Assembly: GCF_003334335.1 (NCBI RefSeq)
Contig: NZ_QOWQ01000020.1
Length of the DNA: 64,000 nt
Source of the DNA: Escherichia coli
Lineage (GTDB): Bacteria > Pseudomonadota > Gammaproteobacteria > Enterobacterales > Enterobacteriaceae
Direction: 5' to 3' (one strand)
Below are positions 19,831 through 44,978 of this stretch, piece after piece. Both the position numbers and the translations under genes were made by a program. The notes under the pieces are model-generated. The model made no database searches. It was not told where the DNA came from and was given only the letters and a program-made list of their open reading frames with translations. Position 1 is the stretch's first letter. Every line of letters begins with the position of its first letter.

Positions 19831-20772
19831 ATGTTAGACAATGTTTTAAGAATTGCCACACGCCAAAGCCCACTTGCACTCTGGCAGGCACACTATGTCA
19901 AAGACAAGTTGATGGCGAGCCATCCGGGCCTGGTCGTTGAACTGGTACCGATGGTGACGCGCGGCGATGTGATTCTTGATACGCCGCTGGCGAAAGTAGG
20001 CGGAAAAGGCTTATTTGTAAAAGAGCTGGAAGTCGCGCTCCTCGAAAATCGCGCCGATATCGCCGTACACTCAATGAAAGATGTGCCGGTTGAATTCCCG
20101 CAAGGTCTGGGACTGGTCACTATTTGTGAGCGTGAAGATCCTCGCGATGCCTTTGTGTCCAATAACTATGACAGTCTGGATGCGTTACCGGCAGGCAGTA
20201 TCGTCGGGACGTCCAGTTTACGTCGCCAGTGCCAACTGGCTGAACGCCGTCCGGATCTGATTATCCGCTCCCTGCGCGGCAACGTCGGCACTCGCCTGAG
20301 CAAACTGGATAACGGCGAATACGATGCCATCATTCTTGCCGTAGCCGGACTAAAACGTTTAGGTCTGGAGTCACGTATTCGCGCCGCGTTGCCACCCGAG
20401 ATTTCTCTTCCGGCGGTAGGACAAGGTGCGGTGGGTATTGAATGCCGCCTTGATGATTCACGCACTCGCGAGCTGCTTGCCGCGCTGAATCACCACGAAA
20501 CTGCACTGCGCGTTACCGCAGAACGCGCCATGAATACCCGTCTCGAAGGCGGATGTCAGGTGCCAATTGGTAGCTACGCCGAGCTTATTGATGGCGAAAT
20601 CTGGCTGCGTGCGCTGGTCGGCGCGCCGGACGGTTCGCAGATTATTCGCGGTGAACGCCGCGGTGCGCCGCAAGATGCCGAACAAATGGGGATTTCGCTG
20701 GCAGAAGAGCTACTGAATAACGGCGCGCGCGAGATCCTCGCTGAAGTCTATAACGGAGACGCCCCGGCATGA
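19831..20772 (+). CDS. hemC: hydroxymethylbilane synthase (porphobilinogen deaminase)
   Basis: Track ORF from 19810; start set at ATG 19831 ([20 protein letters not shown]). Confidence 0.94.
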
Positions 20773-21509
20773 GTATCCTTGTCACCCGCCCGTCTCCCGC
20801 TGGAGAAGAGTTAGTGAGCCGTCTGCGCACACTGGGGCAGGTGGCCTGGCATTTTCCGCTGATTGAGTTTTCTCCGGGTCAACAATTACCGCAACTTGCT
20901 GATCAACTGGCAGCGCTGGGGGAGAGCGATCTGTTGTTTGCCCTCTCGCAACACGCGGTTGCTTTTGCCCAATCACAGCTGCATCAGCAAGATCGTAAAT
21001 GGCCCCGACTACCTGATTATTTCGCCATTGGACGCACCACCGCACTGGCACTACATACCGTAAGCGGACAGAAGATTCTCTACCCGCAGGATCGGGAAAT
21101 CAGCGAAGTCTTGCTACAATTACCTGAATTACAAAATATTGCGGGCAAACGTGCGCTGATATTACGTGGCAATGGTGGTCGTGAGCTAATTGGGGATACC
21201 CTGACGGCGCGCGGTGCTGAGGTCACTTTTTGTGAATGTTATCAACGATGCGCAATCCATTACGATGGTGCAGAAGAAGCGATGCGCTGGCAAGCCCGCG
21301 AGGTGACGATGGTCGTTGTTACCAGCGGTGAAATGTTGCAGCAACTCTGGTCGCTGATCCCACAATGGTATCGTGAGCACTGGTTACTACACTGTCGACT
21401 ATTGGTCGTCAGTGAGCGTTTGGCGAAACTCGCCCGGGAACTGGGCTGGCAAGACATTAAGGTCGCCGATAACGCTGACAACGATGCGCTTTTACGGGCA
21501 TTACAATAA
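20769..21509 (+). CDS. hemD: uroporphyrinogen-III synthase
   Basis: 246-aa ORF overlapping hemC stop (ATGA). Confidence 0.95.
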
Positions 21510-21530
21510 CTCTCATAACAGGAAGCCATA

Positions 21531-22724
21531 ATGACGGAACAAGAAAAAACCTCCGCCGTGGTTGAAGAGACCAGGGAGGCCGTGGACACCACGTCACAAC
21601 CTGTCGCAACAGAAAAAAAGAGTAAGAACAATACCGCATTGATTCTCAGCGCGGTGGCTATCGCTATTGCTCTGGCGGCGGGCATCGGTTTGTATGGCTG
21701 GGGTAAACAACAGGCCGTCAATCAGACCGCCACCAGCGATGCCCTGGCTAACCAACTGACGGCATTGCAAAAAGCCCAGGAGAGCCAAAAAGCCGAGCTG
21801 GAAGGCATTATTAAGCAACAAGCTGCACAACTTAAGCAGGCGAATCGTCAGCAAGAAACGCTGGCAAAACAGTTGGATGAAGTCCAACAAAAGGTCGCCA
21901 CCATTTCCGGCAGCGATGCTAAAACCTGGCTGCTGGCTCAGGCCGATTTTCTGGTGAAACTCGCCGGACGGAAGCTGTGGAGCGATCAGGACGTCACGAC
22001 CGCTGCAGCGTTGCTGAAAAGTGCAGACGCCAGCCTGGCGGATATGAATGACCCGAGTCTGATTACCGTTCGTCGGGCAATTACCGATGATATCGCCAGC
22101 CTTTCTGCAGTATCGCAGGTGGATTATGACGGCATCATCCTTAAGCTTAATCAGCTTTCAAATCAGGTAGATAACCTGCGTCTGGCCGATAATGACAGCG
22201 ATGGTTCGCCGATGGATTCAGACGGTGAAGAGCTTTCCAGTTCCATCAGCGAATGGCGTATCAATCTGCAAAAAAGCTGGCAGAACTTTATGGACAACTT
22301 CATTACGATTCGCCGTCGTGATGACACCGCCGTACCGCTGTTAGCGCCAAATCAGGATATCTATCTGCGCGAAAATATTCGCTCTCGCCTGCTGGTCGCA
22401 GCACAAGCTGTACCGCGTCACCAGGAAGAGACTTATCGCCAGGCGCTGGAGAACGTCTCCACCTGGGTACGTGCTTACTACGATACTGATGATGCCACCA
22501 CCAAAGCGTTCCTCGACGAGGTGGACCAGTTAAGCCAGCAAAATATCTCGATGGATCTTCCGGAAACCCTGCAAAGCCAGGCGATGCTGGAAAAACTGAT
22601 GCAGACTCGCGTGCGTAACCTGCTGGCACAACCGGCAGCGGGGACAACGGAAGCTAAACCTGCACCTGCACCTGCACCTGCACCGCAAGCTGATACTCCG
22701 GCAGCCGCGCCGCAAGGAGAATAA
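21531..22724 (+). CDS. hemX: HemX membrane protein with C-terminal Pro-Ala repeat
   Basis: 397-aa ORF; N-terminal TM segment, coiled-coil region, PAPAPAPAP tail. Confidence 0.92.
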
Positions 22725-22726
22725 CC

Positions 22727-23923
22727 ATGCTAAAAGTGTTATTGCTCTTTGTGTTGCTGATTGCGGGGATCGTGGTTGGCCCGATGATTGCCGGCCATCA
22801 GGGTTATGTGCTGATCCAGACCGACAACTACAATATCGAAACCAGCGTCACGGGCCTGGCGATCATATTGATTCTGGCGATGGTAGTGCTGTTTGCCATT
22901 GAGTGGCTACTGCGGCGGATCTTCCGCACTGGCGCGCACACCCGTGGGTGGTTTGTCGGACGTAAGCGTCGCCGTGCACGTAAGCAGACCGAACAGGCGC
23001 TGCTGAAACTGGCGGAAGGCGATTATCAGCAAGTTGAAAAGCTGATGGCGAAAAATGCCGATCACGCGGAACAACCGGTGGTGAACTATCTACTGGCTGC
23101 CGAAGCCGCGCAACAACGTGGTGATGAAGCACGCGCCAACCAACATCTGGAACGCGCAGCGGAGCTGGCCGGCAACGACACCATTCCGGTAGAAATCACC
23201 CGCGTACGTCTGCAACTGGCCCGTAATGAAAACCATGCTGCACGCCACGGCGTGGATAAGCTGCTGGAAGTTACGCCACGCCATCCGGAAGTATTACGTC
23301 TGGCGGAACAGGCGTATATCCGCACAGGTGCATGGAGTTCGCTGCTGGATATTATCCCATCAATGGCGAAAGCCCATGTTGGTGATGAAGAACATCGTGC
23401 AATGCTGGAACAACAGGCATGGATTGGCCTGATGGATCAGGCGCGTGCCGATAACGGTAGCGAAGGTTTGCGTAACTGGTGGAAAAACCAAAGCCGGAAA
23501 ACGCGTCATCAGGTAGCGTTGCAGGTGGCAATGGCGGAACATCTTATTGAATGTGACGATCATGATACTGCCCAGCAAATTATCATCGATGGCCTGAAAC
23601 GCCAGTACGACGATCGCCTACTGCTGCCGATTCCTCGACTGAAAACAAACAATCCGGAACAGCTGGAAAAAGTGCTGCGCCAGCAAATCAAAAACGTCGG
23701 CGATCGCCCGCTGTTGTGGAGCACACTGGGCCAGTCACTGATGAAGCACGGAGAATGGCAGGAAGCATCGCTCGCCTTCCGCGCAGCGCTGAAACAACGT
23801 CCGGACGCCTACGATTACGCATGGCTTGCCGACGCGCTGGACAGACTGCACAAGCCGGAAGAAGCTGCAGCGATGCGTCGCGACGGTTTGATGTTAACGT
23901 TGCAGAATAACCCGCCACAGTAG
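22727..23923 (+). CDS. hemY: TPR membrane protein HemY
   Basis: 398-aa ORF immediately after hemX. Confidence 0.94.
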   Translation: MLKVLLLFVLLIAGIVVGPMIAGHQGYVLIQTDNYNIETSVTGLAIILILAMVVLFAIEWLLRRIFRTGAHTRGWFVGRKRRRARKQTEQALLKLAEGDYQQVEKLMAKNADHAEQPVVNYLLAAEAAQQRGDEARANQHLERAAELAGNDTIPVEITRVRLQLARNENHAARHGVDKLLEVTPRHPEVLRLAEQAYIRTGAWSSLLDIIPSMAKAHVGDEEHRAMLEQQAWIGLMDQARADNGSEGLRNWWKNQSRKTRHQVALQVAMAEHLIECDDHDTAQQIIIDGLKRQYDDRLLLPIPRLKTNNPEQLEKVLRQQIKNVGDRPLLWSTLGQSLMKHGEWQEASLAFRAALKQRPDAYDYAWLADALDRLHKPEEAAAMRRDGLMLTLQNNPPQ

Positions 23924-23970
23924 TTCCTTCTCACCCGGAGGCAAGCACCTCCGGGGCCTTCCTGATACAT

Positions 23971-24177
23971 AAAAAAACGCCTGCTCTTATTACGGAGCAG
24001 GCGTTAAAACAGGTCTGTATGACAACAAGTGGGTGCTTCACTCAACGTTGTGTCCATGGTGTCTGATGAGGCATAAGCGACATCTGTCAGTGGACGATAA
24101 GCACCGTAAACGGCTCTGCGTCATTCCGGAGTTTATGAGGCACTAAGGCGAACATAAGAGATGGAATGAGCATCTAC
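23971..24177 (-). ncRNA. glmZ: GlmZ (SraJ/RyiA) small regulatory RNA
   Basis: Minus strand begins GTAGATGCTCATTCCATCTC and ends in GC-rich hairpin (AACGCCTGCTCCGTAATAAGAGCAGGCGTT) plus U7; sits in hemY-aslA spacer as known for GlmZ. Confidence 0.85.
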
Positions 24178-24601
24178 TCGTTTATTATGCCACAGAGAAT
24201 CGGGAAATAACATCCCTTAACACTTGTTATGAGATAATTCTGTAATCCTCTTTGCTTCCTGAGTAATAACTTCCTGAGTGAATATTTAACCTGAGCTTGA
24301 TCCTACACATACTTATTATGAATGATAAAATTCATTCAATTAATAACACATATATTAATTGCCGTTAAAACTAAAAACAGCATCAATAATCAACGCGATA
24401 TAATAAACCTGCCTTACATATCAACTGCGCCAGAGGTAGGATTGAAAACGCTCTCCTGATTTTCCAATTCATTTTCTGGATAAATAAATAATTTATTTTT
24501 GTCACTATTATTTATGTAATCATCCTGTCAGGGAGAGGGATCTCAATTATCAATGCTTAATTACGTCATCATTTTGATGACATGAAACCGGAGCATTTTG
24601 C

Positions 24602-26257
24602 ATGGAATTTTCGTTTTCACCCAAACGTCTTGTTGTTGCTGTCGCCGCCGCTCTTCCTCTCATGGCCAGCGCAGCAGATACCCCGTCAACTGCCACCGCA
24701 CGCAAAGGCTTTGCCGGATACGATCACCCAAACCAGTATCTGGTTAAACCGGCGACCACTATTGCCGACAATATGATGCCAGTAATGCAGCATCCGGCGC
24801 AGGATAAAGAAACCCAGCAGAAGCTGGCAGAACTTGAGAAAAAAACCGGTAAGAAACCGAATGTGGTTGTTTTCTTGCTGGACGATGTGGGCTGGATGGA
24901 CGTCGGTTTTAACGGTGGCGGCGTGGCGGTGGGTAACCCTACACCAGATATCGACGCCGTTGCCAGCCAGGGGCTGATTTTAACTTCGGCGTATTCTCAA
25001 CCAAGCTCTTCCCCAACCCGCGCCACCATTCTCACCGGACAATACTCCATCCACCACGGCATTCTGATGCCGCCAATGTACGGGCAACCGGGCGGGCTGC
25101 AAGGGTTAACCACGCTGCCGCAGTTGCTGCACGATCAGGGCTACGTCACTCAGGCCATCGGAAAATGGCATATGGGGGAAAACAAAGAGTCGCAGCCGCA
25201 GAACGTTGGCTTTGATGATTTCCGTGGCTTTAACTCGGTGTCTGATATGTACACCGAATGGCGCGACGTTCACGTCAATCCGGAAGTGGCCCTGAGTCCG
25301 GACCGTTCTGAATACATCAAGCAATTACCGTTCAGCAAAGATGACGTTCATGCGGTGCGCGGCGGCGAACAACAGGCCATTGCCGACATTACGCCGAAAT
25401 ATATGGAAGATCTGGATCAACGCTGGATGGACTATGGCGTTAAGTTCCTCGACAAGATGGCGAAGAGCGATAAACCATTCTTCCTCTACTACGGCACTCG
25501 TGGCTGCCACTTCGATAACTACCCAAATGCGAAATATGCGGGTAGCTCTCCGGCACGCACCTCGTATGGCGACTGCATGGTGGAGATGAACGATGTGTTC
25601 GCTAATCTGTATAAAACACTGGAGAAAAACGGTCAGCTTGATAACACGCTGATCGTCTTTACCTCCGATAACGGACCGGAAGCCGAAGTACCGCCGCACG
25701 GACGCACCCCGTTCCGTGGTGCGAAAGGTTCGACCTGGGAAGGCGGCGTTCGCGTACCGACTTTCGTTTACTGGAAAGGGATGATCCAACCGCGTAAATC
25801 TGACGGTATTGTCGATCTGGCAGATCTCTTCCCTACCGCGCTGGATCTGGCAGGGCATCCTGGAGCGAAAGTGGCGAATTTAGTGCCGAAAACCACCTTT
25901 ATCGATGGTGTGGACCAGACATCCTTCTTCCTGGGAACAAATGGTCAGTCTAACCGTAAGGCCGAGCACTACTTCCTCAACGGTAAACTCGCTGCTGTGC
26001 GTATGGATGAGTTCAAGTATCACGTCCTGATTCAGCAACCTTACGCTTATACCCAGAGCGGATATCAGGGTGGATTCACCGGCACAGTAATGCAAACGGC
26101 GGGATCGTCGGTGTTTAACCTCTACACCGATCCGCAGGAAAGCGACTCCATCGGCGTGCGCCATATTCCGATGGGTGTACCGCTACAGACCGAAATGCAC
26201 GCGTATATGGAGATCCTGAAAAAATATCCACCACGCGCGCAGATTAAATCTGACTAA
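24602..26257 (+). CDS. aslA: arylsulfatase-family enzyme AslA
   Basis: 551-aa ORF with signal peptide [24 protein letters not shown]; sulfatase CxPxR-type motif context ([15 protein letters not shown]). Confidence 0.94.
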
Positions 26258-27797: not shown

Positions 27798-27874
27798 TGG
27801 TCGGCGAGAGAGGATTCGAACCTCCGACCCACTGGTCCCAAACCAGTTGCGCTACCAAGCTGCGCTACTCGCCG
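27798..27874 (-). tRNA. proM: tRNA-Pro (CGG)
   Basis: Reverse complement reads CGGCGAGTAGCGCAGCTTGGTAGCGCAACTGGTTTGGGACCAGTGGGTCGGAGGTTCGAATCCTCTCTCGCCGACCA. Confidence 0.97.
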
Positions 27875-27916
27875 AAATACTGCTTTTTGAATTTTTAGTT
27901 CAATTCTTTAAAGTCG

Positions 27917-28003
27917 TGGTGCGAGGGGGGGGACTTGAACCCCCACGTCCGTAAGGACACTAACACCTGAAGCTAGCGCGTCTACCAATTCCGCCACCTT
28001 CGC
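27917..28003 (-). tRNA. leuT: tRNA-Leu (CAG)
   Basis: 87-nt reverse complement GCGAAGGTGGCGGAATTGGTAGACGCGCTAGCTTCAGGTG...CACCA with long variable arm. Confidence 0.97.
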
Positions 28004-28023
28004 ATTGTCACAACTTCTAATAA

Positions 28024-28100
28024 TGGGGTGGCTAATGGGATTCGAACCCACGACAACTGGAATCACAATCCAGGGCTCTACCAACTGAGCTATAGCCACC
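28024..28100 (-). tRNA. hisR: tRNA-His (GUG)
   Basis: Reverse complement GGTGGCTATAGCTCAGTTGGTAGAGCCCTGGATTGTGATTCCAG...CCCCA. Confidence 0.97.
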
Positions 28101-28157
28101 ACTACAAATCTTGTTACGCGGTATTACTACCACCGCAGCTCAAGCGCCGGGACTAAA

Positions 28158-28234
<77 letters not shown>

Positions 28235-44518: not shown

Positions 44519-44848
44519 TTACGCCAGGTTAGCGTCGAGGAACTCTTTCAACTGACCTTTAGACAGTGCACCCACTTTGGTTGCCGCCACTTCACCGTTT
44601 TTGAACAGCAGCAGAGTCGGGATACCACGGATGCCATATTTCGGCGCAGTGCCAGGGTTTTGATCGATGTTCAGTTTTGCAACGGTCAGTTTGCCCTGAT
44701 ATTCGTCAGCGATTTCATCCAGAATCGGGGCGATCATTTTGCACGGACCGCACCACTCTGCCCAGAAATCGACGAGGATCGCCCCGTCCGCTTTGAGTAC
44801 ATCCGTGTCAAAACTGTCGTCAGTCAGGTGAATAATTTTATCGCTCAT
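44519..44848 (-). CDS. trxA: thioredoxin 1
   Basis: Track ORF 144 aa; known 109-aa protein starts [18 protein letters not shown] with WCGPC active site (ATG 44846-44848). Confidence 0.98.
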
Positions 44849-44978
44849 ATATAACTCCACAGGAATAAGCCTGGCGTGTTGGTTTCGTTGTTGGTGTAAC
44901 ATTAACCAACTAAAGGTTGACTTTATTTCACCGGATACGCTTTCGTAAAGCAATAGTAAGCTGATATTCTACCACACT

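Follow-up and report, generated by a model that had tools for sequence, protein, structure and literature searches.

The small RNA (sRNA) GlmZ belongs to a textbook system of post-transcriptional control, in which an sRNA, the RNase adaptor RapZ and the decoy sRNA GlmY couple glmS translation to the availability of the envelope precursor GlcN6P. It also contributes to intrinsic resistance to GlmS inhibitors. The primary transcript of GlmZ is 207 nt long (PMC4152352). Its contact with RapZ, as resolved by cryoEM, involves the first stem-loop, SL1 (PMC9841335), while a lateral bulge in the second, SL2, determines recognition by RapZ/RNase E (PMC4737144, PMC9841335). The published pairing site on glmS spans positions -41..-19 and is contacted by 15 pairing nucleotides located between SL2 and SL3, as validated by compensatory mutations (PMC4152352). 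The decoy GlmY shares 66% identity with GlmZ (PMC4737144). In Gram-positive bacteria, the glmS ribozyme riboswitch (RF00234) serves the same purpose, namely GlcN6P feedback on glmS (PMC4152352).

A sigma-54 promoter activated by GlrR drives glmZ in most genera, overlapped in Salmonella and some others by a sigma-70 promoter (PMC3045617). Escherichia and Klebsiella transcribe glmZ only from an unregulated sigma-70 promoter (PMC3045617). The Escherichia gene has a single constitutive promoter of this type, for which mutation of either hexamer abolishes or drastically reduces expression and which does not require the sequence upstream of -40; in contrast to Yersinia or Salmonella, E. coli expresses glmZ without the involvement of GlrR or sigma-54 (PMC3045617). 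The convergent arrangement of hemCDXY and glmZ is also found in other genera (PMC3045617).

The locus described here lies in a 64,000-nucleotide stretch of E. coli DNA, the whole of which is referred to as the window. The minus-strand element from 24177 to 23971 is almost certainly the gene for GlmZ (formerly SraJ/RyiA), a trans-acting, Hfq-dependent sRNA of Enterobacterales. A scan of the whole window with Rfam 15 matched the GlmZ_SraJ covariance model (RF00083) to 23971..24177 on the minus strand, scoring 218.4 bits where the gathering threshold is 60 (E 3.4e-56). This match extends from end to end of the model (positions 1-214 of 214) and is the top Rfam match in the window. Together with its flanks, the sRNA (397 bases in all) shares 100% identity with E. 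coli K-12 MG1655, and window position 24177 corresponds to NC_000913.3 position 3986432, the first annotated base of ncRNA glmZ (b4456, 'small regulatory RNA GlmZ'). Of 5426 complete E. coli genomes, 5425 carry the 207 bases at an identity of at least 99%, the median copy number being one. On the minus strand, the 207-nt element opens with GTAGATGCTCATTCCATCTC and closes with AACGCCTGCTCCGTAATAAGAGCAGGCGTTTTTTT; its nucleotides are numbered such that sRNA nt n is window position 24178 - n. Its components and neighbours are as follows.

23971..24177, minus strand: glmZ, full-length primary transcript of 207 nt (RF00083; 5′ end of and identity to MG1655 b4456).
24184..24213, minus strand: sigma-70 promoter, with a -35 element ATGTTA at 24208..24213, a 15-nt spacer and an extended -10 element tggCATAAT at 24184..24192 (published motif).
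24113..24177, minus strand: SL1, sRNA nt 1-65, contacted by RapZ (Rfam structure and minimum free energy (MFE) fold; contact from PMC9841335).
24032..24105, minus strand: SL2, sRNA nt 73-146, central stem-loop with a lateral bulge (Rfam structure; role from PMC4737144, PMC9841335).
24006..24031, minus strand: single-stranded region of 26 nt, sRNA nt 147-172, comprising the glmS pairing site, the Hfq contact and the RNase E site (pairing scan; cleavage and Hfq contact from the literature).
23971..24005, minus strand: SL3, intrinsic terminator and U tail, with the stem at 23976..24005 and seven T at 23971..23977 (terminator scan; inverted repeat I2).
22727..23923, plus strand: hemY, the convergent downstream neighbour and a synteny marker, not part of the sRNA (NCBIfam NF008017, 830 bits).
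24602..26257, plus strand: aslA, the divergent upstream neighbour, given for context only (RefSeq arylsulfatase AslA in an identical stretch).

An earlier, sequence-only reading of this DNA had identified the element as GlmZ, at its known locus in the hemY-aslA spacer, and had described it as about 207 nt long, on the minus strand and ending in a GC hairpin followed by U7. Its proposal stands in each of these respects, from the length, which agrees with the literature, to the position of the element between the end of hemY at 23923 and the start of aslA at 24602; in MG1655, glmZ is likewise found between aslA and hemY. The two checks that it had suggested, a covariance scan with the Rfam GlmZ family and a comparison with an annotated E. 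coli glmZ, correspond to the RF00083 match and to the 397 identical bases with a shared 5′ end. None of the tests run gave a result that contradicts the identification.

Since GlmY and GlmZ are grouped in one Rfam clan (CL00011), in which a lower-scoring overlapping match was suppressed at this locus, the element could conceivably be the paralogous decoy GlmY, or a GlmY-like copy, that acts through the sequestration of RapZ and not through base pairing with glmS. The two sRNAs are 61.5% identical, and a motif in the 3′ arm of SL2 (AACGTTGAGTGANGCNCC), picked as specific to GlmZ, also matched a GlmY in Erwinia endophytica. Within the clan, GlmZ is nevertheless the best match at the present locus, at 218 bits, while the GlmY model claims the true glmY locus of MG1655, which lies between glrK and purL. 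The element adjoins hemY and not glrK. It further carries a 26-nt single-stranded region with the glmS-complementary GUUGUC...GACCUGU, whereas GlmY lacks most of that stretch (its alignment has gaps at CAG, CCUGUUU and one other base). Based on clan competition, the glmS-complementary stretch and the hemY context, we rejected a GlmY identity, which we regard as exceedingly improbable; 23971..24177 does not belong to the GlmY_tke1 family (RF00128). The Erwinia sequence (L061:9556-9718) is itself a GlmY by RF00128, with 122.5 bits, and illustrates how close the SL2 arms of the paralogues are.

Both hemY and aslA are located on the plus strand, with glmZ between them on the minus strand. The genes hemD, hemX and hemY are found at 20769..23923 on the plus strand, hemY being preceded by hemX and hemD. 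On the other side, the gene after aslA is aslB, which encodes a sulfatase maturase and is read from the opposite strand. The aslA product in the window gave only sub-threshold matches to sulfatase families, and its name is taken from the RefSeq annotation of the identical stretch. The strain is an E. coli other than MG1655 itself: over the 7-kb stretch from aslB to hemC, two positions are mismatched and hemX has a repeat expansion of 12 bp. This expansion affects a hexanucleotide tandem repeat in hemX, a plus-strand gene, at 22658..22686 (GGTGCA on the minus strand), which has two units more than in MG1655. The extra bases, at approximately 22673..22684, result in a HemX of 397 aa here compared with 393 aa in K-12, and they represent the only indel in 7 kb of sequence that is otherwise 99.97% identical to that of MG1655.

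In some E. coli strains, an IS1 element is present in the spacer between aslA and glmZ (for example NZ_CP068041.1, with an IS1 transposase CDS at 401..1098 of the locus). The insertion corresponds to approximately 24500..24600 of the window, near the start of aslA and more than 300 bp upstream of the glmZ +1. As the glmZ promoter needs only 40 bp, the likely effect of IS1 is on aslA and not on glmZ.

Additional Rfam matches in the window, all above threshold, include Rev39_5p_UTR at 60071..60363 on the minus strand (157 bits), which by its position is probably the ilv operon leader, and the TrxA 5′ UTR thermometer at 44819..44918 on the minus strand (78.8 bits). Four tRNAs are clustered upstream of aslB (27801..28234, minus strand), and the end of the window holds a 5S rRNA and two tRNAs (63583..63910, minus strand).

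The published promoter motif, ATGTTA-N15-tggCATAAT, has a single exact match in the window and was not matched in any of 100 shuffles. The +1 G of glmZ is situated 7 nt after the -10 hexamer. A generic sigma-70 promoter scan did not report the glmZ promoter, because its -35 element matches at only three of six positions. Further upstream, a 10-nt sequence (ACTCAGGAAG on the minus strand) occurs as a tandem direct repeat spaced 15 nt apart at 24255..24279, that is, 78-102 nt upstream of the +1. Given that the glmZ promoter dispenses with sequences upstream of -40, this repeat may relate to aslA.

At the other end of the element, SL3 consists of AACGCCTGCTC-CGTAATAA-GAGCAGGCGTT, and leads into a T run of seven T in all. 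It forms an 11-bp perfect hairpin with seven G-C pairs and an 8-nt loop, occupies sRNA nt 173-202 ahead of the U tail, and was the sole terminator-like site reported by the terminator scan in 23700..24700. A repeat finder also returned its arms as inverted repeat I2 (11 nt, 100% complementary).

The element ends 48 bp from the stop codon of the convergent hemY gene, and there is a separate GC hairpin between the two. Both observations would suit a structured intergenic spacer that serves merely as the terminator region of hemCDXY, or as a cis or antisense element for aslA, with no role in trans. The T run is however on the minus strand, so that the transcript terminated here is the sRNA rather than that of hemY. 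The element is served by a promoter of its own, validated by experiment (PMC3045617), and does not overlap the coding sequence of either aslA or hemY. In addition, what lies upstream of glmZ differs from genus to genus but the sRNA is retained; in Raoultella and Proteus, tRNA genes occupy this position (PMC3045617). Excluded by the validated promoter and the polarity of the T run, and contradicted by published genetics, the spacer explanation has a probability that we consider negligible, and GlmZ is retained as the identity of the element.

The additional hairpin is found at 23934..23955, between the hemY stop codon (23921..23923) and the 3′ end of glmZ. It is a perfect, GC-rich hairpin of 8 bp, CCCGGAGG-CAAGCA-CCTCCGGG, with a free energy of -17.4 kcal/mol. 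No T run follows it on either strand, which is why it was not reported by the terminator scan. It may mark the end of the hemCDXY transcript or form a barrier between the convergent transcripts.

The 207-nt RNA folds with -60.8 kcal/mol, compared with -46.9 ± 4.2 kcal/mol for dinucleotide shuffles (z = -3.3), and one of 200 shuffles was as good. To examine conservation, representative bacterial and archaeal genomes were scanned once with the SL2 3′-arm motif mentioned above, which yielded 120 loci. A GlmZ homologue was detectable by BLASTN in 100 of these, in genera that include Enterobacter, Citrobacter, Salmonella, Kosakonia, Serratia, Yersinia, Pectobacterium, Brenneria, Proteus, Providencia and Morganella, and a convergent hemY homologue is located immediately downstream in most of the 100 Enterobacterales GlmZ loci. 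The other 20 motif loci, in which BLASTN detected no GlmZ, are mostly in unrelated phyla and for the most part look like chance matches; the Erwinia endophytica GlmY is one of the 20.

We aligned 35 Enterobacterales homologues with the window sequence using MAFFT. In these 36 sequences, nt 129-146, save nt 141 and 144, are invariant by construction, as they were fixed by the search pattern. Overall, 88.5% of the cells in the Rfam consensus structure are paired. With SL1 in the register of the MFE fold, thirteen pairs show changes on both sides, a number that was reached by none of 500 shuffles. The basal helix of SL1 is paired in 100% of cells, and pair 13/53 in SL1 is U-A in 30 sequences and C-G in six. 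The helices of SL2 are 94-100% paired; here, pair 78/141 is U-A in 23 sequences and C-G in 13. In the terminator, seven of the 11 pairs show compensatory changes across genera. Within the pairing region, GACCUG (nt 163-168), which was unconstrained by the search pattern, is invariant in all 36 sequences.

When the Rfam consensus was applied directly to the MAFFT alignment, only 26% of cells in the apical helix of SL1 were paired, and pair 14/53 was formed in only six of the 36 sequences. The SL1 register taken from the MFE fold gave 94.7% of cells paired, compared with 35-42% when the partners were slid by one to three columns. In the apical part of SL1 (24134..24165, nt 13-45), the RF00083 pairs 19-22/40-44 and 14/53 are thus mostly unpaired across the alignment, while a register shifted by one (13-15/51-53 and 21-25/41-45) is 99-100% paired. 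The annotated structure of RF00083 may be slightly mis-registered in apical SL1, or the mapping onto the MAFFT alignment may exaggerate the effect.

Full-length GlmZ is also recognised by Rfam in Yersinia, Raoultella and Proteus. The GlmZ of Raoultella ornithinolytica (L072:2825-3084) is 260 nt long because approximately 53 nt are inserted into the apical loop of its SL2. Of three Yersinia sequences, two (Y. artesiana and Y. rohdei; L008:450-673 and L067:6422-6646) have an insertion of approximately 15 nt in the SL1 loop. The Raoultella sequence (199.7 bits) and the Yersinia sequence at L008 (209 bits) both match the Rfam model end to end. In Raoultella and Proteus, a tRNA cluster is found upstream of glmZ in place of aslA.

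The same alignment bears on the coding potential of the element. No ORF of at least 40 aa in the ORF list of the window overlaps it, in line with the earlier statement that this is not a protein gene. Five ORFs of 26-37 aa do overlap it, and the AUG at nt 5-7 is invariant in 36 of 36 Enterobacterales sequences. It could therefore be asked whether a small protein is produced instead of, or besides, the sRNA, the candidate being a 28-codon ORF from this AUG (24087..24173, minus strand). However, the AUG lies inside the invariant SL1 basal helix, which accounts for its conservation, and the frame that follows is not conserved, with lengths of 9 to 62 codons (most commonly 12) in 35 of the 36 sequences and no stop codon in the remaining one. 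Alignment indels are not multiples of three, and substitutions are compensatory for RNA pairing. Only GUAG lies 5′ of the AUG, which leaves no room for a Shine-Dalgarno sequence. We rejected the small-ORF explanation based on the variable frame length and the lack of space for a ribosome-binding site. That a small protein is made here, or that GlmZ is a dual-function sRNA also translated from the AUG at nt 5, is very unlikely.

As glmS, rapZ, hfq, rne and glmY are located outside the window, the glmU-glmS spacer of MG1655 was used as the target for pairing analyses. Every 26-nt window of GlmZ was scanned against glmS positions -60..+6, and the two RNAs were also cofolded. The top GlmZ window, nt 149-170 (24008..24029; CUUGUUGUCAUACAGACCUGUU), pairs with glmS -41..-21 through 15 bp in two blocks (8 + 7) at -19.2 kcal/mol, and this computed duplex coincides with the published site. 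Sixteen of 2000 shuffled single-stranded regions were as good; shuffling in the scripted tests was by mononucleotide. Duplex energy is not discriminating, with GlmY SL1 windows reaching -23.5 kcal/mol through long (19-nt) internal loops; a full-length RNAduplex comparison of GlmZ with the whole glmU-glmS spacer gave duplexes spanning the molecules, with shuffles scoring better. For this reason, the pairing argument rests on positional agreement with the published site.

When the glmS leader was folded alone, positions -41..-21 formed the 5′ half of a hairpin, the 3′ half of which covers the ribosome-binding region. Cofolding with the 3′ part of GlmZ moves these nucleotides into a duplex with the sRNA and frees the ribosome-binding stretch from pairing. 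Among the homologues, GlmZ of the Morganellaceae (Providencia, Moellerella, Morganella and Proteus; L009, L021, L046, L049 and L064; columns 226..231 of alignment A2) lacks the UGUU within the upstream half of the glmS pairing site. The same sequences keep GUC...GACCUG, and the glmS leaders of Morganellaceae presumably differ to match the altered pairing site.

The function of GlmZ has been established experimentally for an E. coli sequence identical to the one in the window (PMC4152352, PMC4737144, PMC9841335, PMC7073468), and on the basis of this identity the element would be expected to act in Hfq-dependent activation of glmS, to be cleaved by RNase E under the guidance of RapZ, and to be counteracted by GlmY. 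Transcription of the minus strand from the constitutive sigma-70 promoter to the intrinsic terminator would produce the 207-nt RNA. With Hfq bound to the single-stranded region and the U tail, this RNA is predicted to pair with the 5′ half of the glmS leader hairpin and to open it (PMC4152352, PMC4737144). Opening of the hairpin would increase glmS translation and stabilise the mRNA, such that the level of GlcN6P synthase would rise. When GlcN6P is ample, a RapZ tetramer would bind SL1 and SL2 and present the single-stranded region to RNase E (PMC4737144, PMC9841335), whose cut at approximately nt 151 (approximately window position 24027) would remove the pairing site (PMC4737144). When GlcN6P is scarce, the homologous decoy GlmY would accumulate and sequester RapZ, which would allow full-length GlmZ to accumulate (PMC7073468).

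The discovery of GlmZ at this locus adds no new biology, and its practical value lies in annotation. In the 15 listed PGAP-annotated E. coli records, nothing is annotated over the 207 bases of glmZ, and the earlier remark that ORF-based annotation would miss the element was a fair one. The MG1655 record, for its part, stops just before the terminator hairpin and is 35 nt too short (23971..24005 in the window, NC_000913.3 3986604..3986638). With PGAP records that have no feature here and a K-12 gene drawn 35 nt short, a pass with covariance models is therefore needed to label the locus correctly.

Among the known systems to which the locus can be compared, the glmS ribozyme is an unrelated, cis-acting and self-cleaving RNA in the glmS leader, which differs in mechanism and is not a relative of GlmZ. 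GlmY (Tke1/SroF, RF00128) is a homologue from the same clan, whose SL1 and SL2 resemble those of GlmZ and bind RapZ. Its identity to GlmZ is 61.5% here by global alignment, and its single-stranded region is short (12 nt) and without glmS complementarity. The GlmZ sRNAs of Salmonella, Yersinia and other Enterobacterales have a common fold, the invariant GACCUG and a convergent hemY. All defining features of the GlmZ family that are accessible in silico were found at this locus, namely the model score, identity to b4456, architecture, glmS complementarity, position next to hemY, and promoter. With K-12 GlmZ (b4456), the element shares the same sequence, 5′ end, promoter motif, three-stem-loop architecture, glmS pairing site, terminator and hemY-aslA position. 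The sRNA itself does not differ, although the glmZ feature in the MG1655 RefSeq record is drawn at 172 nt compared with the 207 nt supported by the terminator and the literature. The GlmZ encoded here is already known and has been thoroughly characterised, including by cryoEM; it is canonical and shows no departure from the K-12 reference.
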